The translations under genes were made by a program, and so were the position numbers. Below, piece after piece: positions 9,911 to 62,478 of a DNA stretch of 64,000 bases. The DNA comes from an uncultured virus (IMG/VR IMGVR_UViG_3300044621_002455) (lineage: Duplodnaviria > Heunggongvirae > Uroviricota > Caudoviricetes): the IMG/VR virus record IMGVR_UViG_3300044621_002455; one strand, written 5' to 3'. Position 1 is the stretch's first letter. Every line of letters starts with the position of its first letter. The notes below the pieces were generated by a model. That model made no database searches, was not told the origin of the DNA, and saw nothing but the letters and a program-made list of their open reading frames with translations.

Positions 9911-10351
9911 GCTTGCTTGTGAAGAGTTTCTTCTGGAATTTCCCGACACGGAAGTGAAGCTTCTCTGGGAAGAAGGCGTTCTCACTGAGAACTACGATCC
10001 CGAATGCCTAGAAGAGCCCACTGATGTGAGGGCGATTAATGACTGGCCGCTCCCTGGCGACAGCTTGATCGTCAAGAGTGAGGTGCCTTCCAAAATGTTT
10101 GTCATTATGTATGGCGAATATCAGCCCGCCTTTGGCTACGAAACCGTTGCCTCCATTGATTGATGGACTTCCCCAATCTCACCACCTCTGAGCTTTCTGC
10201 TCGCATGAAGCAAATGGACCATGACGTGGTTCATTGTCTTGATTGCTTTCTTTCTGATACTGGCGTGGCCGTAACTGGACTGAGCCTTTCGTTTGATGAA
10301 GAAACTGAAGAGTATCTTCTTGATTGGCACTTCGCTTTTCTTGAAGAATGA
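9891..10351 (+). CDS. two acidic hypothetical proteins (9891-10163, 10163-10351)
   Basis: Coupled ORFs within the operon. Confidence 0.6.
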
Positions 10352-11289
10352 ACCACACTATCCTCACCTACTCCCCCTCCGACTTTTCCAGCATGGAAGA
10401 CTCCGCAAAACAAGCAATGATGGACCGTTACAACGGCGTCTTCACTCCCTTGGAGATCAGCGCCGAAGCTTTCAAAACGGCTTACGACACCCCTGACATT
10501 GGCCCCCACATTGAAAAGGACTACAAAGGCCTCTCCTATCTGTCGTGGCCTTTTGCCTTCCGCTATCTGAAGGAGCATTTCCCGACGTTGTTTGTAGCGT
10601 TTGAAGAGAAGACCATTGGCTGGCCTGTATTTGGTGAGCCTGGTGCCTTCATCCTTCGCCCCTATCTCACTGATGGGATCAAGCGCACGCCTGCGCTGGT
10701 ATTTCCAATCATGGACCGTAAGCACAATTCCATTCAACAGCTTGATGGTCGTGCCATTTCCGACAACATCCAACGTGCCAGCGTCAAGGCAATTGCTACG
10801 TTCACGGGCCTTGGTCTTCGGCTCTATGCCGGAGAGGACATCCCCAAGGAAGAGGCAAAGCCGGCGCTGCAGCAGGACACGCCCAAGGCGCCTGCACGCA
10901 CTAAGGCTGCCCCTAAAGCAAGCGCTCCTGCTGCTGGAAGCGAAGGGACTGCTCCCGCCGCTGATACAGGGGCCTCTGAGCCCTTCGATGCGAAGGCAGC
11001 TCTCATGGCAGTGTGCAAAGCCAATCCCCTCGGCTATCTAGACGAGAAGGCTTCCATGGCAGCAGGCAAGGCCTCCTTGGAAAGCATTGGCTTGGCACGC
11101 GCCACGGAAGTGAAGAGCTGGCAAGCCTTCGGAAACGTCGTCGCATCAATGATGACGCTATGGGCCAAGGAGCAAGAAATTGTCATTAGCAAAGCTGAAA
11201 TGACAGAGGAAATCAATCTTGTTCGTGGCCTTGAAGACACCAGTGCCATCATTGAAGGCATGAAGGCTTTCGTGGCAAAAAAGAAATAG
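10348..11289 (+). CDS. Sak3/DUF1071-family single-strand annealing protein
   Basis: LSYLSWPFA, FPIMDRKHNSI and ISDNIQRASVKAIA..GLGLRLYAGEDIP motifs. Confidence 0.8.
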   Translation: MNHTILTYSPSDFSSMEDSAKQAMMDRYNGVFTPLEISAEAFKTAYDTPDIGPHIEKDYKGLSYLSWPFAFRYLKEHFPTLFVAFEEKTIGWPVFGEPGAFILRPYLTDGIKRTPALVFPIMDRKHNSIQQLDGRAISDNIQRASVKAIATFTGLGLRLYAGEDIPKEEAKPALQQDTPKAPARTKAAPKASAPAAGSEGTAPAADTGASEPFDAKAALMAVCKANPLGYLDEKASMAAGKASLESIGLARATEVKSWQAFGNVVASMMTLWAKEQEIVISKAEMTEEINLVRGLEDTSAIIEGMKAFVAKKK

Positions 11290-11991: not shown

Positions 11992-12224
11992 AAACCATTC
12001 TCTTCCTTTTTGCCTTTACATTGCTGCCCAGTTCCGCCTTGGCGCAAGCACAGCCCATACAAAAGACAGGCTATAGCTGTCCTCTTGGTTATTACGTTTC
12101 AGGAAGCTATTGCATGCCAAGTGCAGGCAATCGCAGTAAATGGTCCATTCCCAAGGATGGCCCATCTTGTCCACTAGGCTCTTATGTTTCTGGCAATTAT
12201 TGCACGAAATCTTATGCCCGATAA
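11988..12224 (+). CDS. small secreted Cys-repeat protein
   Basis: Signal peptide MKTILFLFAF..., two repeats SCPLGYYVSGSYC / SCPLGSYVSGNYC. Confidence 0.7.
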   Translation: MKTILFLFAFTLLPSSALAQAQPIQKTGYSCPLGYYVSGSYCMPSAGNRSKWSIPKDGPSCPLGSYVSGNYCTKSYAR

Positions 12225-13024
12225 TGGCCTGCTACGATCTATGCCTCTCCTCCCTTCAAATGCAAGCATTTCCCCGTTACGAACCCAACCGGCTACAAAT
12301 TCAGAAGAAACGTTATTACGTTTGCGGCGATTTTCCCAATGTCCCCGCCGAACTTGTTTTGCCCTCTGTGACAACTATTGCGAGCGCGTGTTCTCCGCCT
12401 GGCAAAATTGCGGCGCTAATGAATTGGCGCAAGAAAGTGGGCAATGAAGAAGCTAATCGTCGCACTCGTAATGCAGTGGACAGGGGCAACTGGCTCCATG
12501 GAGTGCTAGAGGATCTATGGAATGGAGAAGACATTCAATGCCATCTCGATTCCCATGAGAAATACGTGCCTTATTTTGAAAGCATTATGGGCTTTCTTGA
12601 GAGTGTTGATAGTCCATTGCTTGTGGAAAGTGCCATTGCTTGGTATGATCCGGCGCAAGAAATTGGCTATTCAGGCACCTTTGATATGCTTGCCAAAATG
12701 AACAGCGGAGCCTATGCCTTGTTGGATTGGAAGACAAGCTACAAAGAGAAGCCTGATACGCAACTGGCCGACTATCGCATGCAGCTTGGTGCCTACGTGC
12801 AGGCGATTGAGCAGATGTATGACATAGAAGTGAACGAGGCGCATTGTGCCATCGCCATCCATGATCCTGATACTGGCCATTCTCAAGAAGCGCAAATCGT
12901 GAGCCTTTCAGCAGGAGAGCTTGCGATGCAGGCAGGCATCATGGTGCAGAAAGTGCAGCAGTTCTTCTTCGAGCACTACCCAGGCGGACGCCCCTTAACA
13001 ATTTCTATGGACAGGGGCGCTTGA
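12224..13024 (+). CDS. PD-(D/E)XK exonuclease (Cas4/RecB-like), likely partner of the annealing protein
   Basis: LPSVTTI, RGNWLHGVLE, YSGTFD..LLDWKTS, QLGAY. Confidence 0.85.
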   Translation: MACYDLCLSSLQMQAFPRYEPNRLQIQKKRYYVCGDFPNVPAELVLPSVTTIASACSPPGKIAALMNWRKKVGNEEANRRTRNAVDRGNWLHGVLEDLWNGEDIQCHLDSHEKYVPYFESIMGFLESVDSPLLVESAIAWYDPAQEIGYSGTFDMLAKMNSGAYALLDWKTSYKEKPDTQLADYRMQLGAYVQAIEQMYDIEVNEAHCAIAIHDPDTGHSQEAQIVSLSAGELAMQAGIMVQKVQQFFFEHYPGGRPLTISMDRGA

Positions 13025-15986: not shown

Positions 15987-16333
15987 TGACTGACGCTGTG
16001 AATCATCCCCGTCATTATGCCAAAAATGGCGGCATTGAATGTATTGAGGCCATTGAAGCTTCAATGGACAAAGATGATTTTCGTGGTTTCCTAAAAGGGA
16101 ACATTCTGAAATATGTTTGGCGCTACGAAGAAAAAAATGGCCTAGAAGATTTGAAGAAAGCTAGTTGGTATCTTGATCTTCTCATTTTCAATATAGAAAA
16201 CGAGCCACAACAAGAAGCTGTGGAAGCTCTTGAGAATGCCTCTCAAGAATGCGAAGGAGGATTCTGTCCGATGCCCGGCATTCGCTATGACCTCCCTGGA
16301 AAGCAAATCACTTTCGCTCCAGTAGAAAACTAA
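15986..16333 (+). CDS. DUF3310 (SaV-like) protein
   Basis: VNHPRHY..GGIECIEAI...GFLKGNILKYVWRY..KNGLEDLKKA.WYL. Confidence 0.85.
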   Translation: MTDAVNHPRHYAKNGGIECIEAIEASMDKDDFRGFLKGNILKYVWRYEEKNGLEDLKKASWYLDLLIFNIENEPQQEAVEALENASQECEGGFCPMPGIRYDLPGKQITFAPVEN

Positions 16334-16812
16334 GCAACATTACAACAGAGCCCCCATGAGGGGGCTTTTTCATGCTCAATTTTTTGGTGCATGGGCAGAA
16401 CAATCCCTTTCTTCTCGCACCATTCCTCAAGATGCTTTTGGTCAGTGTGAGCACTGACAAAGCTATTGCAATACACCCAAGCCATCAGAATCTCCTCTCG
16501 CTTTTCCGTCCAGAATTGCTGAGGACGCCACCATTCAAAAAGATTTTCGTTTCCCTTGGACAGATTACAGGTTCGACAAGAGGGCACAAGATTAAACTTA
16601 CTGAAGTGCGGGCCGCCTTTACTCTTCGGAACAATATGGTCAATCGTAAGCTTTTCTCCCCATTCTCCGCAATAAGCACAAGCGCATTGGCCAAATGGCC
16701 CCCTCAAAAAATAATCTTCAAAAATGCTCTTACGGAATCTACGTTTTGCATCACCAGGGCGAAGTTCAATGAGAGAATAAAGCAGCTCATCAGGACCATT
16801 CGCTCTAAGCAT
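16330..16812 (-). CDS. HNH endonuclease
   Basis: CAYCG...TIDHIVPKSKGG...NLVPSCRTCNLSKG. Confidence 0.85.
   Translation of the reverse strand: MLRANGPDELLYSLIELRPGDAKRRFRKSIFEDYFLRGPFGQCACAYCGEWGEKLTIDHIVPKSKGGPHFSKFNLVPSCRTCNLSKGNENLFEWWRPQQFWTEKREEILMAWVYCNSFVSAHTDQKHLEEWCEKKGIVLPMHQKIEHEKAPSWGLCCNVA
16349..16370 (+). terminator. intrinsic terminator ending the replication operon
   Basis: AGCCCCC-ATGA-GGGGGCT followed by a T run. Confidence 0.65.
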
Positions 16813-22143: not shown

Positions 22144-22998
22144 TCAAAGCACTGGCATCTCGTATTCTTGCGTACTATTGCAATAGTGCTTGAAAATCAC
22201 TTCGCTTGTATTGCCCGCCCAGTTGGCCACTTGTGGCACGGGAATGCCAGCCTCGATCCAGCGGCTGATAGCAGTGTGGCGACAATCATATGGCCTGTAA
22301 ACGTGAGAAATTAACCCTGCTTCATGCAAAGGCGAAAGCTTTTTCCTGAAATAGCTTTGAAAGGCAAGCCGATTCCATGGAAAAATAAAATCGTTTTCGC
22401 GAGGAAGTTCGGCAAGAATCTCTTGGCAACGAGCATTAATAGGCACCCAGCGGCGCTTGTTGGTTTTCGTGCTATTCTTTAGGCCATGCGTAAGCGTATA
22501 GTTTTGATGCACTAAAAGCTTGTTTTCCTTGATATCGTCCCATTTCGCCGCCCTCACTTCGCCAGTGCGCATTGCAGTTTGCAACATAAATTCCGTATAC
22601 CAAGACCAATTAACATCGCGATAAGTGAGCTTCGCTTCTAATGCGGCAAGGACCAAGCCAGTTTCATTTCGAGGGATGACAACGATTTCCTCTTCGCGTT
22701 GAGGTGCCTTTGGCATTTTGAAGCTTGCCAATGGATTGCGAGCAACGATTGCCACGTCTTCTTGCGCTGCCCATTTGTACATAGTCTTGATGTACATAGC
22801 AACGCGCCTTGACGTGAGCACTGGTTTTTCTCCCAATGCCCAGATCATTACTTTCCTGGCTTCGTCAATGTCTTGAATAGGACAGCGCTCCAGCCATTTG
22901 CTAACTTGCTTATAGTCTGAAGTGAGACTAGTTGGACATAAAGAAATGGAGCGCTCTTCGACGAAGGCGCTCCAGAGGCTTGAGACAGTGGTGGTCAT
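22144..22998 (-). CDS. tyrosine recombinase (core-binding plus catalytic domain, no arm-binding domain)
   Basis: Catalytic R in TAMRTGE, K in STKTNK, RPYDCRHT, WAGNT and the Tyr nucleophile in FKHY. Confidence 0.9.
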   Translation of the reverse strand: MTTTVSSLWSAFVEERSISLCPTSLTSDYKQVSKWLERCPIQDIDEARKVMIWALGEKPVLTSRRVAMYIKTMYKWAAQEDVAIVARNPLASFKMPKAPQREEEIVVIPRNETGLVLAALEAKLTYRDVNWSWYTEFMLQTAMRTGEVRAAKWDDIKENKLLVHQNYTLTHGLKNSTKTNKRRWVPINARCQEILAELPRENDFIFPWNRLAFQSYFRKKLSPLHEAGLISHVYRPYDCRHTAISRWIEAGIPVPQVANWAGNTSEVIFKHYCNSTQEYEMPVL

Positions 22999-23689: not shown

Positions 23690-25666
23690 CTAGGCGATAC
23701 CAGCATCAGTGAGACGCTGTTCCAGTTGCTCGATGCGCTCCATTGCTTCCTGCAGCGCCTTCACTGCCTTCATGTAGAGCACCGAGTAGTTGACGCTCTT
23801 GGTTACGGTGCCGAGGTCGTTGCCTTCTGCGTCGCGGTCAGGGGATTCGCTGACGAGACCAGGGGAGACGAGTTCAACCTCTTGGGCGATCAGACCGATT
23901 TGGGTGTGGGTCTGGCCTTCTTTGAAGTTGTAATTAACAACTCGGAGATCCTTCAGGTCATCCCATTGGGAGCTGGCATCAACGATGTTCTCCTTCAGTT
24001 TGATGTCGGAGATGGCGCCGTAGGAGTTGTTGGTGTTTTGAACGTTGCCGTTATACCTAACAATAAAACATCCAGTTCCAGTGCCAACCGCTGTAGCTGA
24101 ATGTTGTCCCTCAAAAATCGCACCACTTGAAGCCGCTGCTGCGCTTACGCTTACCGTGATGCCGTCAGATGTTGAGTACGCATATTGCGCCCCATCTTTA
24201 GTAATCCTCATCCGCTCCGTCGGAGAACTCGCCCCATCCGCAGTAGTGGAGAACACCAATCTCCCTGGAAGGTCACTTGCAGAAGAGACAGTCCCATCAG
24301 CAGCGCAATCAATAGCTGCAAATGTTGCGCCAGTATTATCTCCGAACGTAATCTGCCCAAGCGCACTTCCTGAACCAGTCGCTGCAGAACCACGCTGAAT
24401 AGAGATAATGCCGCCACCAGTTGCGTCGCCGTTATACCCTTGAGCAACAATTCTTGCGTACTGTCCCTGTCCTGTCGTAGGGCTAGAAGACGTACCAACT
24501 AAGAGCCTGCCGCTGGAGTCGATGCGGACGCGTTCAGCATCGGCAGTTTTGAAAACAATGGGACCAGATCCATAGTTGTTTAGGAATACGGATGTGCTTC
24601 CATCTTCGTAGCTCAAGAAAGCTTTGTCAGTACCGGTAGAACTTCTAAAACGAACAGCAGCGAATGAATCACTCCTTGATGTAATAACACCATTTACATC
24701 AAGTGCAGTCCCAGGGCTCGTGGTGCCCACCCCTAGGCGGCCTGAGGAGTCAATTCTTGCTCGCTCAGTTCCATCTACCTTAAATTGAATAAGACTATTG
24801 GCTTGTGTATTTGCCTCATCAGCTTGCAAAAGTAATGCGCCAGTGCTATCTGACGCAAGCGTGGCAATACCAAATCCAGGATATGTAAGATTTAATTTTG
24901 CCGATGTAGTTGTTGAAAGATCTAGTAGCGTGGCAGGTGAACTAGTCCCCACGCCTACGAGCCCTGCCGAGGTGATGCGCAGGCGTTCGGTGTCATTGGT
25001 GCCAAGAAGCAGTGGCCCGGCTTGGGTATTGTAGAAGGAAGTATCACTTGAATCTGAAAAAATGTAAGCCCTCCTGGTTCCACCCGCATCTAGGTTAATT
25101 AAAGAGCTAGATGAGCCATTCAGCTCAAGAATCTGGCGTCCCGCCGAAGGGGAATTAAAAGTTGAAGTACCAACCCCAACATTCCCACTCGCATCCACAA
25201 ACAACCTGCCAGACCCACCAGTGCTGATGGCTACTTGGTCTGCGCCGGGGGAGTACAGTCCAGAATTTGCGTCCCCGCTAAAAAATAGTCCTGGCGTGGA
25301 AGCGCTGCCTGCAATAATGCCCAGCGCTCCAGTCATCGTATCACCAGTGACGTTTACAAACTCACCAGCTTCACTGCGCCATGCGCTGCCGTCCCAAACT
25401 TTAAAAACGTAAGTGCCGCCACTCGTATCTAGCCATTGCTCGCCAAGACTATTGCCAGCAGTGCCGCCACTTGCGGGACTTGCATTAGGAACTCCACTGC
25501 CAACATGCACAGGCCCCACTTTCACCAGGCTTCCATTGCTGTCCTTGAAGAACATGCCGGGAGCACCACTTGCATAATTAATGGCCACTTGACCATCAAC
25601 CATGGAAGCAGGATTAGGACGCTTATCCAGCGTCGAGGAACGTAAATGCTGAAGAACGCCAGCCAT
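23690..25666 (-). CDS. modular tail fibre / receptor-binding protein with C-terminal Peptidase S74 chaperone
   Basis: Repeated ER.RI.S.G..GVGT..P modules; C-terminal SD.KLKENI...IGLIAQEVE...VNYS followed by a coiled coil. Confidence 0.9.
   Translation of the reverse strand: MAGVLQHLRSSTLDKRPNPASMVDGQVAINYASGAPGMFFKDSNGSLVKVGPVHVGSGVPNASPASGGTAGNSLGEQWLDTSGGTYVFKVWDGSAWRSEAGEFVNVTGDTMTGALGIIAGSASTPGLFFSGDANSGLYSPGADQVAISTGGSGRLFVDASGNVGVGTSTFNSPSAGRQILELNGSSSSLINLDAGGTRRAYIFSDSSDTSFYNTQAGPLLLGTNDTERLRITSAGLVGVGTSSPATLLDLSTTTSAKLNLTYPGFGIATLASDSTGALLLQADEANTQANSLIQFKVDGTERARIDSSGRLGVGTTSPGTALDVNGVITSRSDSFAAVRFRSSTGTDKAFLSYEDGSTSVFLNNYGSGPIVFKTADAERVRIDSSGRLLVGTSSSPTTGQGQYARIVAQGYNGDATGGGIISIQRGSAATGSGSALGQITFGDNTGATFAAIDCAADGTVSSASDLPGRLVFSTTADGASSPTERMRITKDGAQYAYSTSDGITVSVSAAAASSGAIFEGQHSATAVGTGTGCFIVRYNGNVQNTNNSYGAISDIKLKENIVDASSQWDDLKDLRVVNYNFKEGQTHTQIGLIAQEVELVSPGLVSESPDRDAEGNDLGTVTKSVNYSVLYMKAVKALQEAMERIEQLEQRLTDAGIA
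24244..25179. repeat. five in-frame putative recombinase core sites at tail-fibre module boundaries
   Basis: Coding strand TTGG-GGTTGGT-ACTT (25165-25179), TAGG-CGTGGGG-ACTA (24943-24957), TAGG-GGTGGGC-ACCA (24721-24735), TAGT-TGGTACG-TCTT (24487-24501), TGGT-GTTCTCC-ACTA (24244-24258). Confidence 0.55.
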
Positions 25667-25739: not shown

Positions 25740-28700
25740 TCAGAAACTTCCTTCATCAATGGTGGCATCAATCGTGCCAGCAGAGAAGTTGCCACTACTG
25801 TCGCGGGCAACAATGGCATTGGCAGTGTTAGCGCTAGTGGCAGTGGTGGCACTGTTACTAACTTTTCCTGCAGTGGAAATAGTAGAAAGTTTAGTGTCGG
25901 CAATGCTGCCAGCAAGCATCGTGTTGGTAACAGTGCCAGTATCACCAGTGGTAATAATGGTGCCAGTAGTATCTGGAAGCGTGACCACCTTGTCAGAAGT
26001 GGCATCAGCAGCAGCAAGCTGGATTTCAAAAGTGTTATCAGTGGCGCCTTCAAAAAGAAGCGTGCCAGCGCTGCCAATGACCACTTCACCAGTGATGGTG
26101 CCGCCAGTCCTTGGTAATGCAGCGTTGGCCAAATCAAAAGCACTCTTCACTGCAGTGGCAGTAGCAGCAAGCGTAGAACTTGTAGTGGACGTGCTATCAG
26201 TAAGAATGACGGTGCCACGTACGCTTGTAGTGGCATCGGGGATGGAAATAACAGCATTCGTAGTGCCGCTCACCACAGTGAGCGGAGAATTCACGCTTAC
26301 TGAAAGGACTGTGCCACTCGCGGGTGTTGTCCAATGTACGCCACCACCAAAGGCCGAATTAGCGGTGAGTACCTGGCCATTAGTGCCAACAGCTTGCTTG
26401 ACAAGCGTTGTACCACTAGCAACAAGAATGTCACCTTTCGTATAGGTGTTAAAGCCAGTGCCACCATAGCCAGTGGTCAAAATGCCACTTGCTACGTTAT
26501 TAATGTTGCGGCATTCGGCATTAACTTCTTCAATTGCGGATTGCACATTGGTACTGCCAATGGTTCCAGCCGGAGCAAACGCAACGTTAGAAGCAGTCTG
26601 AGAAAGATAGGTGGAGCTAACGTCAAGTTCCACCCACGCCGTGCCATTGCAAAGCAGGATGTCGGGCGGCTGCAAAACAGTTTCAGGCGCAGGCGAAGTG
26701 CCCGTTCCTCCACTCGCCACCACAACGTAATAGCGATTAAATGTGGTCGATGCAGCAGGAAGTGGTTGCCCTAAAGAAAGGCCAATAGCTGCGCCATCGG
26801 CACTAACGCTTGCAATGGTGTTTCCAGAAGCGTTATAAGTGCCGCCAAAAATAATTTCGCCAACTGAAATGCCAACTGGGTTCCAAACGTTACCGTCCCA
26901 GAGATAAAGATCTTTCTCCAATGGATTGAAGAAGAATTGTCCAATAAAATCAGCAACTGGTGGCGCTTCACCAAACTGACTCACTGAATAGTTGGCAAGC
27001 TTGGAAGCAAGAATTGCTTCGTCCGCGATAAACCCGCTGCCAAATGTGCCAGTGGTAATTTTGCTAGCGGGAAGAGAAGGAATATCGTCAGCGACAAGAG
27101 AAGTTTCACCAGCACTAATGTGCCCCTGCTCATCTACCGTCACCTTGTAGTAAACGCCAGATGCCACACTATTTGCGTGGTTAAAAATGCCGCTAACAGT
27201 AACCAAGCCTGTGCCAGCCTGAGCTACGCCCAAAGCAGCGGTGGTTGCTTTCGGAAGATCGTCGGCAGTGATGGCCCTGAAAGTGGGAGCAGCATCAGCA
27301 TTGCCACTTGCTGGGCCAGCGAAGAAGCGCGTTGCTACTTGCGTATTTAACGAAGGAACAATGGAAGCACTAAATTCGTCAGGGTAAGATGTGGCGTAAG
27401 TGTAAACAGTGTCGCCTGAAATAACAGTGGTAGCGAGCCCACTTTGCCTCCGCCAAGCGCTTCCAGTCCAAGTGTATTCAACACCAGTATTTGTATTGAG
27501 CCATTGCTGGCCAATGAAATCACCGTCGCCAGTCGGAGTGGATCCAGCGACAACGGCGGCAGAGTTATCGGCTAGTTTTGCTGCAGTGACGCCACTATCA
27601 ATGATCTTGGCAGTAGTAACAGCGCCATCAAGAATCTTGATAGTCGTTACAGCATCATTGGAAATAGTGGTACTAAATCCAGCGGTGCCAGTGCCAGTGA
27701 CATCCCCGGAAAGAGTGATGGTCTGGTCGCCAGTGTTGGTGCCAGTGGAAGTACCAGAAAAGCTGCCATTTTGAGTGGCAAGCGTGCCGAGGCCTAGTGT
27801 TGTGCGCTGAGCACTGGCATCAGCATCGTCCAATAAAGCCCTGCCAGCAGCCGTAAGCGTGATTTCCTCTACATTGCCACTTCCTGCAGAGGCCCTGCCA
27901 AGCAGCACACCACTGGCCACTTGTTGAATTTTGGCAAACGTAACTGCATTATCTGCAATGGCAGCAGTGGGGATGGAGCCACTTACATAGCTTCCAGAAG
28001 GAATGGAACTCGCCGTAATGAGAGAGCCGGAAAGCTCACCAGAGGAAAGAGAAAGCTTGGCAAGCGTAACAGAGCCAGATGCAAGCTTTGCTGCCGTGAC
28101 ATTACCGTCTGTGATATTCACAGTGGCCACTGCGTTAGCAGCAAGCTTTACTTGCGTAACGCCACTATCTGCAATGTAAGCAGTGGCAATACTTCCGCTA
28201 GCTAGCTTGCTCTGCGTAATACTTCCGTCAACAATATGAACTCCACTGACTGCAGCGGCAGCAATTTTCGCGCCCGTAATCGCACTGTCAGCAATATTAA
28301 CAGTCACCACTGCATCAGCAGCTAATTTCCCTGCTGCCACTCCACTTGCAACTAGTTGAACACTATCAACTGAATTTGCGGCAAGCTTTGCATTGGTTAC
28401 GCCGCTATCAGCAATCTTGACAGTGCTAACGCTGCCACTTGCAAGCTTGTCGGAAGTGACACTTCCATCCTCAAGAAGAGCCGTGTTGATAGTATTGCCA
28501 GTGGCAACAGCTCCTAGTCCGATGGTGGAGCGGACAGTTGCGGCGTCGGCATCGTCGAGGATGGTGCGAGCAAATGAAGTGCAAGTAATTTCTTCAATGC
28601 TTCCACTACTGGCAGAAGACCGCCCTAGAAGCTTGTCTGTTGCGCTAACGTTTTGAATCTTGGCATAAGTGATTGCGCCGTCAGCAATGGCAGTGGTGCC

Positions 28701-28901
28701 AATTTTTGTAGTGCTACTTTGATTGATCTTTGCAATATCTAGCGTTGACGAATCCGCTAGGCTAAAACCAGCTTGGATTAAGCTTTTTACTGCTACCTTC
28801 TTTGTCTGACTTGCGCTAATGTCTACAATTGGCAATACGTCGCCAGAAGCAACTGCCCCTTGGGAAAGCTCAACAAGTTCCGTGATTCTTTGATCGGCCA
28901 T
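25740..28901 (-). CDS. long tail fibre protein
   Basis: 1053 aa with many VT.AK(L/I)AD repeats, MADQRITEL N-terminus, IDEGSF end. Confidence 0.85.
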   Translation of the reverse strand: MADQRITELVELSQGAVASGDVLPIVDISASQTKKVAVKSLIQAGFSLADSSTLDIAKINQSSTTKIGTTAIADGAITYAKIQNVSATDKLLGRSSASSGSIEEITCTSFARTILDDADAATVRSTIGLGAVATGNTINTALLEDGSVTSDKLASGSVSTVKIADSGVTNAKLAANSVDSVQLVASGVAAGKLAADAVVTVNIADSAITGAKIAAAAVSGVHIVDGSITQSKLASGSIATAYIADSGVTQVKLAANAVATVNITDGNVTAAKLASGSVTLAKLSLSSGELSGSLITASSIPSGSYVSGSIPTAAIADNAVTFAKIQQVASGVLLGRASAGSGNVEEITLTAAGRALLDDADASAQRTTLGLGTLATQNGSFSGTSTGTNTGDQTITLSGDVTGTGTAGFSTTISNDAVTTIKILDGAVTTAKIIDSGVTAAKLADNSAAVVAGSTPTGDGDFIGQQWLNTNTGVEYTWTGSAWRRQSGLATTVISGDTVYTYATSYPDEFSASIVPSLNTQVATRFFAGPASGNADAAPTFRAITADDLPKATTAALGVAQAGTGLVTVSGIFNHANSVASGVYYKVTVDEQGHISAGETSLVADDIPSLPASKITTGTFGSGFIADEAILASKLANYSVSQFGEAPPVADFIGQFFFNPLEKDLYLWDGNVWNPVGISVGEIIFGGTYNASGNTIASVSADGAAIGLSLGQPLPAASTTFNRYYVVVASGGTGTSPAPETVLQPPDILLCNGTAWVELDVSSTYLSQTASNVAFAPAGTIGSTNVQSAIEEVNAECRNINNVASGILTTGYGGTGFNTYTKGDILVASGTTLVKQAVGTNGQVLTANSAFGGGVHWTTPASGTVLSVSVNSPLTVVSGTTNAVISIPDATTSVRGTVILTDSTSTTSSTLAATATAVKSAFDLANAALPRTGGTITGEVVIGSAGTLLFEGATDNTFEIQLAAADATSDKVVTLPDTTGTIITTGDTGTVTNTMLAGSIADTKLSTISTAGKVSNSATTATSANTANAIVARDSSGNFSAGTIDATIDEGSF

Positions 28902-61440: not shown

Positions 61441-61984
61441 GCGAGATACGATACCTAAGCGGAGCCACTACTAAAGAGCTTAAGCGGCTCCGCGCCTAGC
61501 CTGCTAGACGACGCTTCTAAGCGAAAGCTTCAAGCGAGCGGAGTCCCCCGAAGGGACGAAGCGTCTACTGAGAAAAAAGGCTAGACAAGCTGCTCATTCA
61601 TGACGAGTGGAGCCCCAAAGGCGGAACGTTCTTCTCTGAGCAGCGAAAAACAAAAAGGCTGATCCAGATCCTATGTAATGGATTGGGCATACTATGTCTC
61701 GCCAATTGGAACGAGCTAAAAGCTTTTCCATCTCAAGAAGGTCTAGCAACGGCGGCCGTCAGGGCCGCCTTTTCAAGAAAACAGACGATGGAGAGGAGGG
61801 TGATGCAAATTGTTTAGAGCTGGCATATTGTCTTGTTTCGCTTTTGTTTATCATTCCGCCCCCTTTGGGGCTTCATTCGTCTTGCTTATTGTCTTGAAAT
61901 GCCTCAAGCGGCGCCTGCGGCTTGCTTTCGGCATAGTGCTACTGGGCTTTTGCTGGTTAGCATTTAGCAGTTACGAAAAGGTTA
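61441..61984. other. symmetric hairpin-rich non-coding region, candidate replication origin
   Basis: A/C-rich left arm, central GGCGGCC-GTCAG-GGCCGCC hairpin, G/T-rich right arm; inverted copies of a shared motif at 61601-61632 and 61854-61881. Confidence 0.45.
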
Positions 61985-62478
61985 TGGAAGCTAGCTCAAA
62001 GCGTTGTTCGGTTTGCAAGGAGATCAAAAACCTCTCGTTGTTTGGTGTTCGCAAAAAAGCTAAAGATGGTCGCAATTATCGCTGTAAAGTTTGCCAGTCA
62101 AAATCGAGCAGAGACAGTCGGTCCAAAAATCCAGTGGCAACACAAATTGGGACTATGGTCAAAAAAGCTAAAGAGCGCTCTATCTTGAAAAAATTGCCCT
62201 TTGACATTGATTCCGAATACCTCCTTGATCGGGCTCCTTCCCATTGCCCAATTTTCAATATTCCACTGGAATGGTCGTGCTTTCGTTCAGGGAAAAAAGG
62301 CCCGCTCCCCAATAGCCCATCCCTAGACCGCATCGTCCCGGATCTTGGCTACGTCAAAGGAAACGTATGGATTATTAGCCATAGGGCAAATACAATCAAA
62401 AGCAATGCCACTCACGAAGAACTAAAACTAGTGGCAAACGCCGTAGGCAAAGCAATAGTCGATAGCCTAGAATTTTAG
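61984..62478 (+). CDS. HNH-like endonuclease with N-terminal zinc finger
   Basis: KRCSVC...CKVC; CPIF...SPSLDRI.P..GYVKGNV.IIS.RAN.IKS; start reassigned to ATG 61984. Confidence 0.8.
   Translation: MEASSKRCSVCKEIKNLSLFGVRKKAKDGRNYRCKVCQSKSSRDSRSKNPVATQIGTMVKKAKERSILKKLPFDIDSEYLLDRAPSHCPIFNIPLEWSCFRSGKKGPLPNSPSLDRIVPDLGYVKGNVWIISHRANTIKSNATHEELKLVANAVGKAIVDSLEF

Follow-up and report, generated by a model that had tools for sequence, protein, structure and literature searches.

Tail fibres set the host range of phages, and their fast diversification is central to phage ecology and engineering. The 64,000-nucleotide (nt) stretch of DNA analysed here, to which we refer as the window, belongs to an uncultured virus (IMG/VR record IMGVR_UViG_3300044621_002455), and its tail fibre gene raises a simple question: are the joints between the modules of the fibre conserved for the protein alone, or do they also act as DNA, as points at which modules are exchanged? 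An earlier reading of the window's letters (the original prediction) had placed five recombination-like sites in frame within this gene and proposed that modules are gained and lost there. We find that in the natural family to which the gene belongs the module joints are conserved as DNA, beyond the protein, at single-nucleotide resolution. On comparison of sequences we consider it probable that the junctions are in-frame, position-specific linkers for homologous, short-homology recombination, which would swap variable modules in register.

Junction words in homologous fibre genes

The C-terminal residues 553-605 of the fibre protein match Peptidase_S74 (PF13884) with 42.3 bits, against a Pfam cut-off of 22. 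Two tail fibre families of PHROG match with E-values of 4.6e-75 and 6.2e-65, and the nearest named relatives of the protein are Synechococcus phage fibres. By these matches the gene product is predicted to be a phage tail fibre with a C-terminal S74 intramolecular chaperone, and the fibre itself to be modular and trimeric. Its repeat, ERxRIxxxG-x-[VL]G[VIL]GT[ST]SP, would form at each junction a conserved structural element between variable segments. It aligns to PDB chains 8oml and 8ond, two Bdellovibrio fibre proteins described as trimeric beta-helical fibres akin to S74 phage fibres (PMC10769870).

We collected 80 IMG/VR loci through peptides that lie outside the junctions, which yielded 75 distinct homologous open reading frames (ORFs) with 222 distinct junction cores of 60 nt. 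Synonymous variation at the junction codons, which the original prediction expected to be free if the pattern were only a by-product of the peptide repeat, is strongly suppressed across these 75 fibres. Within this gene pool each junction type appears to be written in a near-invariant word of its own, 15-20 nt long, or in the case of LLVGTS a 48-nt island. Word A, GTAGGGATTGGCACTAC, stands in 24 of the 31 VGIGTT copies, in 24 different ORFs, where the codon use of these genes predicts a fraction of 0.0017; word B, TTAGTTGGYACGTCT, stands in 35 of the 52 LLVGTS copies and word C, YTAGGTCTGGGGACTAGT, in nine of the 16 LGLGTS copies, with expectations of 0.0015 and 0.0001, computed in the same way.

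The constraint ends within a few codons of the words. Codon homozygosity in class A is 0.66-0.94 at the five word codons (columns 12-16) against a background of 0.26-0.44. The conserved Ile six codons upstream of word A (column 6) gives 0.41 with a background of 0.44, and the conserved Leu seven codons downstream (column 23) gives 0.18 with a background of 0.19; in 123 further word-A contexts the same two controls stand at 0.44 versus 0.43 and at 0.21 versus 0.19. The conserved stretch in class B is the 48-nt island, and yet the Leu codon directly 5' of word B is free (TTG 16, CTC 15, CTG 14 and CTT 6 in the family; CTC 40, TTG 34, CTG 27 and CTT 11 in 126 further contexts), and one Ser codon inside the island is also far more variable. 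When all junctions are pooled, the third positions carry just 0.05-0.53 bit and are nearly free, and pairs of junctions match synonymously only 1.2-1.7 times as often as expected at columns 13-19. The constraint shows solely after the copies are grouped by junction type, when a few DNA haplotypes become visible. The real signal is thus several different words of 15-20 nt or islands of 48 nt, not a degenerate 15-nt motif.

Could such words arise without any role in recombination, from a peptide repeat, shared ancestry and codon habits, with joints placed elsewhere simply giving non-functional fibres? The haplotype-like linkage between codons does resemble descent, and VGIGTT is freely encoded across IMG/VR: in 205 copies of G.VGIGTT drawn with a degenerate pattern from the whole database, word A occurs eight times. 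However, simple shared descent or codon habit cannot yield words that are 66-94% homozygous next to free neighbouring codons: conserved residues 6-11 codons away have fully randomised codons, the Leu before word B varies, and the copies that bear a word have unrelated flanks (for word A, the 60-nt flanks have a median ungapped identity of 0.38 upstream and 0.32 downstream). We regard this explanation as improbable.

The eight copies of word A follow base composition, with five of 27 peptide copies at a G+C content of 0.48-0.55, three of 60 at 0.42-0.48 and none of 119 elsewhere. The peptide, being freely encoded in other gene pools, does not need the word, and the words are specific to one gene pool. 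The exact 17-mer of word A is present in at least 124 IMG/VR stretches; among the matches listed, all 120 distinct contexts read it in frame as VGIGTT, with very diverse flanks.

The words are also specific to position. Along the fibres the N-terminal type comes first, followed by C or D, then A, then B and then the terminal island: A stands ahead of B in 24 cases and the reverse order never occurs, whereas C comes ahead of A in 12 cases and D ahead of A in nine. Different word types have at most about seven consecutive bases in common, and even one peptide, VGIGT, is spelt differently in different positions: class A has GGG ATT GGC, with 26 of 31 copies using GGC for the last Gly, and 15 of 17 class D copies use GGG for that Gly. 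Different words in a fixed order would hold exchanges between genomes in register, and they disfavour recombination between the junctions of one gene. The gain and loss of modules put forward in the original prediction therefore stands on the evolutionary scale, as relatives vary from one to ten junction cores, and is unsupported as excision or insertion between the junctions of a single gene. Internal duplication was considered as a source of modules and rejected: the repeats within L072, L046, L020, L066, L059 and L040 mostly share 26-101 nt, the exception being one pair of 291 nt at 70% in L072.

The spelling of the words bears on translation as well. Clusters of rare codons (AGG, TTA, GTA, GGG, ATA, CTA) might be selected to slow the ribosome while the trimer folds, or stops might be selected out of frame; minor codons are indeed in excess (observed versus expected: GTA 43 versus 19.5, GGG 60 versus 13.4, TTA 47 versus 10, ACG 73 versus 27), and every word type has a TAG in the +1 frame. 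However, it is one particular codon that is fixed and not any rare codon, the codon of the same Gly in VGIGT depends on the class (GGC in A, GGG in D), and other gene pools encode the peptide freely. RNA structure is not consistent between the four junctions (z-scores 0.07, -2.25, 0.04 and -1.40), and translational selection leaves the breakpoints described below unexplained. We find this account hardly credible.

The 17-mer of word A also has 40 matches in genome contigs (loci L472-L511), about 30 of them judged to be in-frame VGIGTT, in diverse bacteria with many Bacteroidota. None of the 40 matches is in cyanobacteria; with about 70 chance matches estimated in 596 Gb, this says nothing about host or gene pool. 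In Bacteroidota a signal-peptide-like N terminus often directly precedes the 17-mer, with (T/S)P...L.V on its other side, and the VGIGTT motif is widespread outside phages.

Mosaic make-up of the fibre gene and its natural breakpoints

Compared with its relatives, the window's fibre gene is composed of the following parts (CDS, coding sequence; its nt are counted from the start codon).

23690..25666, minus strand: tail fibre gene, an ORF of 658 amino acids with an N-terminal anchor block, four stalk modules bounded by junctions, a tip that varies and the C-terminal S74 chaperone
25166..25666, minus strand: N-terminal conserved block (CDS nt 1-501), which ends in junction 1 (VGVGT, 25166-25180)
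24934..25014, minus strand: island 2 (CDS nt 653-733), which holds junction 2, CTC GTA GGC GTG GGG ACT AGT, class D-like
24690..25000, minus strand: exchanged cassette (CDS nt 667-977) made up of islands 2 and 3 with the variable module between them
24690..24776, minus strand: island 3 (CDS nt 891-977), which holds junction 3, CTA GGG GTG GGC ACC ACG, class A-like
24485..24535, minus strand: island 4 (CDS nt 1132-1182), which holds junction 4; its letters are GAA CGC GTC CGC ATC GAC TCC AGC GGC AGG CTC TTA GTT GGT ACG TCT
24192..24275, minus strand: island 5 (CDS nt 1392-1475), LPGRLVFSTTADGASSPTERMRI, with the fifth site of the original prediction on its 5' edge
23690..24052, minus strand: S74 chaperone, the C-terminal conserved block (CDS nt 1615-1977); its upstream edge is a sharp mosaic boundary

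The five islands and the terminal blocks alternate with segments that lack DNA similarity to relatives, and the gene is a mosaic. Its N-terminal block is 77-97% identical in DNA to 16 loci, with alignments that stop at nt 441-500; one of the relatives (L002) is about 97% identical until nt 491, inside junction 1, and unrelated beyond. Island 2 gives about 20 short high-scoring segment pairs (HSPs) of 75-97% in otherwise unrelated loci, and the DNA of junction 2 is identical to copy 253 of L046. L045 and L046 match the cassette at nt 667-977 with 96.8% identity over 311 nt, and the DNA to either side of it is unrelated. Island 3 has HSPs of 76-90% to 13 loci, and island 4 has about 40 HSPs of 80-100%, which mostly start at nt 1132 and end at 1179-1183. 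In two loci (L065 and L202) island 4 is present as 48 nt with one or two mismatches between unrelated flanks, and it is found as well in the named phages S-LBS1, S-H1, RN05-S, DSL-LC07 and S-CBP42, whose genomes range from 35 to 207 kb. Island 5 gives about 45 HSPs of 75-96%, many of them from nt 1411; among its 19 family copies the codons of V, F, T, A, P, T, E, R and R have a homozygosity of 0.8-1.0, and the R and L codons just 5' of this stretch vary. The C-terminal block is shared with more than 50 loci at 76-91% identity, and 31 alignments of the S74 block (80-91%) begin exactly at nt 1615, with a variable tip just upstream.

Pairs of relatives place the switches at the words. In four groups of loci (L099, L158 and L172; L108, L115, L120 and L140; L089 and L165; L110 and L194) the sequences to one side of the word are about 97-100% identical and those to the other side unrelated; the change comes at the word's edge. 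Fifteen internal ends of alignments of at least 93% were found in the word-A set, of which nine lie at -30..+25 relative to the word, five at +227..+241 and one at +181. We take the five at +227..+241 to be the next junction, because modules are spaced by 222-243 nt. Six of the eight long alignments of the word-B set start at -75..-21, and two reach further upstream, to -252 and to -236 (the one from -236 stops at +15); besides these, 21 pairs have just an island of about 60 nt in common. When only family members are compared, the sample is small (27 unique internal ends) and agrees in part: 13 of the 14 right ends fall inside the core.

Selection for functional chimeras would by itself leave joints in structurally equivalent conserved cores, a point in favour of the words as by-products of the peptide. 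Against it, crossovers resolve at the edges of 17 nt of identity, which argues that identity is needed and not merely a site that the protein tolerates. The proposal that recombination diversifies the receptor-binding protein is supported by natural mosaic breakpoints exactly at the junction words.

Metagenomes provide a second view of the same boundaries. The window was recovered in lake and freshwater metagenome runs: 24 sequencing runs contain the stretch, all as Logan contigs and from lake, freshwater or "fungus" metagenomes, and four of them were mapped, in which uncovered parts carry no meaning. A contig from a lake metagenome (run X20) parts from the window precisely at 24488, where word B has its final base, others depart at 24713 (right after ...TSP) and at 24935 (right after VGVGTSSP), and another branches at 24754. 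Joints of this kind are unlikely to be assembly chimeras, as 17 nt of identity is shorter than common assembler k-mers. Summed depth over 24176-24247, 24464-24535, 24896-25039 and 25184-25255 is 10-40 times that of the variable segments; in run X9, for example, islands reach depths of 970 and 1980 versus about 50-80. The excess fits many phages per sample sharing the islands. Many apparent "skips" between islands in these data are no evidence of excision: their sides are 24-47 nt long at 93% likeness, and the contigs do not give the letters in between. They probably come from other phages with the same islands.

Sites in the window and candidate recombination functions

All five minus-strand sites of the original prediction are in the window, at 25165-25179, 24943-24957, 24721-24735, 24487-24501 and 24244-24258. 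They encode VGVGT, VGVGT, LGVGT, LVGTS and LVFST, each starting at codon position 2 and spaced by 222, 222, 234 and 243 nt, and junctions 2-4 use GTA, CTA and TTA, which make TAG. As a signal in the DNA, the motif does not hold: the window has 82 instances of TDGK-N7-WCYW, where shuffled sequence gives 69.8 +/- 8.0, and seven of 100 shuffles reach 82. Of the eight positions that the motif specifies, the peptide residues V/L, G/V and T/S dictate five, which leaves two third codon positions, where three and two of the four letters are allowed, and the first base of the next codon (A or T). The spacing by multiples of three is a circular point, since every site was required to start at codon position 2. 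Nor are the five sites equivalents. Neither site 4 nor site 5 is a homologue of sites 1-3: site 4 is offset by one codon from the homologous LLVGT, in whose register the motif fails, and site 5 (LVFST) lies in a different part of its module, on the 5' edge of the LVFSTTADGASSPTERMRI island. Between the modules of the window's gene Tandem Repeats Finder returned no DNA repeats, a repeat search found none in register, and blastn of the gene against itself gave only chance matches of 10-11 nt.

Judged from the window's sequence alone, the peptide repeat would seem to produce the pattern as a by-product, with residues that dictate most of a motif at chance level, and the observation behind it is real yet statistically trivial. 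What holds is the location. Relatives conserve short DNA islands at these places, with sites 1-4 on the 3' ends and site 5 on the 5' end. The copies in relatives mostly have the A-ending, TAG-generating codon too: 58 of 89 [VL]G[VIL]GT copies, with TTA in 38 of 51 LLVGTS copies and YTA in 16 of 19 copies of island 5. Junction 4 is an exact match to word B at 24488-24502, the one word-B site of the window, where two further near-matches at three mismatches are at chance level. Junction 3 differs from word A by four mismatches, and no match to word A within three mismatches exists anywhere in the window.

The window encodes several proteins that could act on such junctions.

22144..22998, minus strand: tyrosine recombinase (integrase) of 284 amino acids, Pfam Phage_integrase 48 bits, phrog_1, two genes (0.7 kb) downstream of the fibre gene
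10348..11289, plus strand: Sak-like (Rad52-type) single-strand annealing protein, phrog_8492 with E 2.7e-46, the candidate catalyst
12140..13024, plus strand: exonuclease, likely partner of the annealing protein, phrog_298 with E 1.2e-43
16330-16812, minus strand: HNH endonuclease
61810-62478, plus strand: EndoVII-like nuclease

The recombinase close to the fibre gene might suggest a shufflon-like system, in which a dedicated enzyme would excise, insert or swap modules in frame at specific sites. The enzyme is 79.6% identical to the integrase of the freshwater cyanosiphovirus S-LBS1, which has the same order of fibre and then integrase, and a homologue stands beside the fibre gene in 11 of the 59 relatives whose loci extend 1.8 kb or more downstream. 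The sharp breakpoints would suit such an enzyme too, as would a weak TAG...CTA dyad in the words. In the R64/IncI shufflon, likewise, in-frame sites lie within the coding sequence of an adhesin (Rci acting on sfx sites, pilV) with a tyrosine recombinase nearby (PMC11852207, PMC5430464, PMC4176322), and the reverse complement of word A has ten consecutive bases in common with the conserved shufflon repeat of R64/IncI2, in its sfx core and the first part of its right arm (PMC5430464, PMC4176322). This match is probably chance: no inverted pairs of words were found, and ten bases are by our estimate about what multiple comparisons against known sites could give.

The remaining evidence is difficult to reconcile with a dedicated recombinase. 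In 48 of the 59 relatives no such recombinase is present in the downstream flank (2.3-3 kb where found). The words differ between junctions, with no more than about seven nt in common, so that a single core site for a recombinase is lacking. In the shufflon as described in those papers, identical inverted sites flank alternative C-terminal segments within one replicon and invert them. Here, by contrast, the sites are direct and position-dependent: the window has no inverted copies of the words and no spare copies or cassettes, and in the four contigs with two word-A matches both copies are in direct orientation, among the matches listed. The enzyme itself is of the S-LBS1 type and not Rci-like, with merely weak XerD-like matches in NCBIfam, far below cut-off; it sits among virion genes (22144-22998, minus strand, in the window; 4001-4855 in L512), and island 4 is spread over phages of very different genome types. 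An Rci-like nature is not supported, and the enzyme is an ordinary integrase, which probably serves lysogeny and has no part in the junction mechanism; the S-LBS1 enzyme is read as a lysogeny function in the text available on that phage (PMC6157547). The integrase and the fibre gene may travel together as a pair. The excision or insertion of the original prediction, taken as the work of a dedicated site-specific enzyme, is unsupported, and we consider it very unlikely. A diversity-generating retroelement was likewise rejected, there being no direct repeat of fibre gene segments and no reverse transcriptase among the 63 ORFs of 100 amino acids or more that were scanned against PHROGs.

Nucleases offer another possible start for exchange. 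A phage enzyme of the HNH or EndoVII type, or host restriction, might cut TAG or CTAG words and leave the break to be repaired from a co-infecting relative. All word types start with TAG in the +1 frame. CTAG is enriched 6.6-fold in the family ORFs, at 13.7 per kb in the junction zone versus 2.1 per kb elsewhere, and depleted across the window (155 observed, 250 expected). Junction 2 has ACTAGT (24943-24948) and junction 3 CCTAGG (24732-24737), and both kinds of nuclease are encoded by the phage. On the other side, neither is tied to the word sequences and there is no sign of breaks, the CTAG enrichment restates the words (ACT AGT, TCT AGT), and word A contains no CTAG. We think such stimulation unlikely, if somewhat less so than a dedicated recombinase.

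We favour homologous exchange. The islands are the sole DNA identity among otherwise unrelated modules and could in that capacity serve as in-frame crossover points, at which co-infecting phages or prophages would exchange modules in register with the frame kept. The annealing protein and the exonuclease are predicted from their PHROG matches to be a Red-like recombination pair of the phage itself, and are the likely catalysts. Phage recombinases of the Rad52 type are described as preferring short, diverged sequences (PMC3945230), and T4 recombination as needing less than 50 bp of homology (PMC2839356). The words might then be kept up by selection for recombination competence, or by homogenisation driven by recombination itself.

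A number of observations weigh against this reading. Word A, with 17 nt, is shorter than the minimal pairing segment, given as 23-27 bp for Red-beta and 31-34 bp for RecA (PMC3945230); exchange there would accordingly be rare, or aided by partly conserved neighbouring codons. In the family-only sample eight of the 13 left ends lie 61-90 nt upstream of the core and not inside it, and the cassette shared with L046 has its limits on the outer sides of islands 2 and 3, which do not coincide with the 15-mers of the original prediction. The window carries one near-canonical word, that of junction 4, with junctions 1-3 diverged, and its own joints may now be poor substrates. Homologous recombination alone leaves unexplained why all word types begin with TAG. 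Finally, the family copies are related sequences, whose counts are not independent events, and the bulk of the data are metagenome contigs.

A stronger version of the same idea is possible, though we hold it only tentatively. The words would be actively maintained "address tags", their silent sites kept by selection for recombination competence, which hold together a library of cassettes across picocyanobacterial phages. Such a library would be common to genomes of siphovirus, podovirus and myovirus size and be exchanged in register for host recognition; an enzyme that recognises TAG- or CTAG-initiated words might start the exchange. If true, diversification would take place at the level of the population, by a system of another kind than shufflons and diversity-generating retroelements. 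The modular theory of phage evolution of Susskind and Botstein reportedly postulates linker sequences, and address tags would be a clean natural instance of them.

Relation to known systems

The finding is a sharply resolved case of recombination in conserved fibre motifs or linkers, a theme known from the T-even adhesins gp37 and gp38, where recombination occurs within conserved fibre motifs (Trojet et al. 2011, PMC3157838). As far as the available text of that paper goes, the present case differs in what is joined and in how it is seen: the joints are those of stalk modules in an S74-type cyanophage fibre, written in discrete words of 15-48 nt at synonymous sites, the word types are specific to position, and the evidence is natural breakpoints, not laboratory crosses. 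In the PeSL cassettes of T4-type phages (Arbiol et al. 2010, PMC2839356), short conserved linkers likewise shuffle the modules that they flank by homologous recombination, and the paper leaves open whether a recombinase helps. PeSLs are described there as intergenic promoter and stem-loop sequences of about 100 bp which flank whole ORFs, whereas the words lie in frame inside one coding sequence and also encode a structural motif.

Relaxed recombination of the Rad52-like type, in which a phage annealing protein and an exonuclease make mosaics that include side tail fibre genes (De Paepe et al. 2014, PMC3945230), comes close to the mechanism that we favour. The homology regions described in that paper are 300-3,353 bp long at 67-98% identity; here identity extends over 17-48 nt. 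The "mosaic adhesive trimer" fibres of Bdellovibrio (Caulton et al. 2024, PMC10769870) have the same repeat, ERMRI..G.VGIGT..P, some of them with an S74 chaperone. That study, in the part available, concerns protein structure, and conservation at the level of DNA is the present addition. A search by title and abstract, with subscription journals outside its coverage, found no description of such words in cyanophage fibres. With the words at hand, the old linker hypothesis of modular phage evolution becomes directly testable, and they suggest natural splice points for the construction of chimeric cyanophage fibres.

The window encodes tape measure, major tail, portal, terminase, major head and protease genes among its virion genes and is, as judged from its gene content, a siphophage genome of the freshwater Synechococcus type. 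G+C content is 0.49 in the window and 0.51 in the fibre gene. In S-LBS1 the tail fibre gene is reported to be notably low in G+C, with 53.8% versus 60.2% for the genome (PMC6157547); this lies near the value of the window's fibre and fits a fibre gene pool common to phages of differing base composition. Directly upstream of the fibre gene is a second fibre-like gene (25740-28901, minus strand, 1053 amino acids), which has a different repeat (Phage_fiber_2, with DUF5907 below cut-off) and a long run of the repeat SVTxAKLAxxAV, about 11 residues in length.

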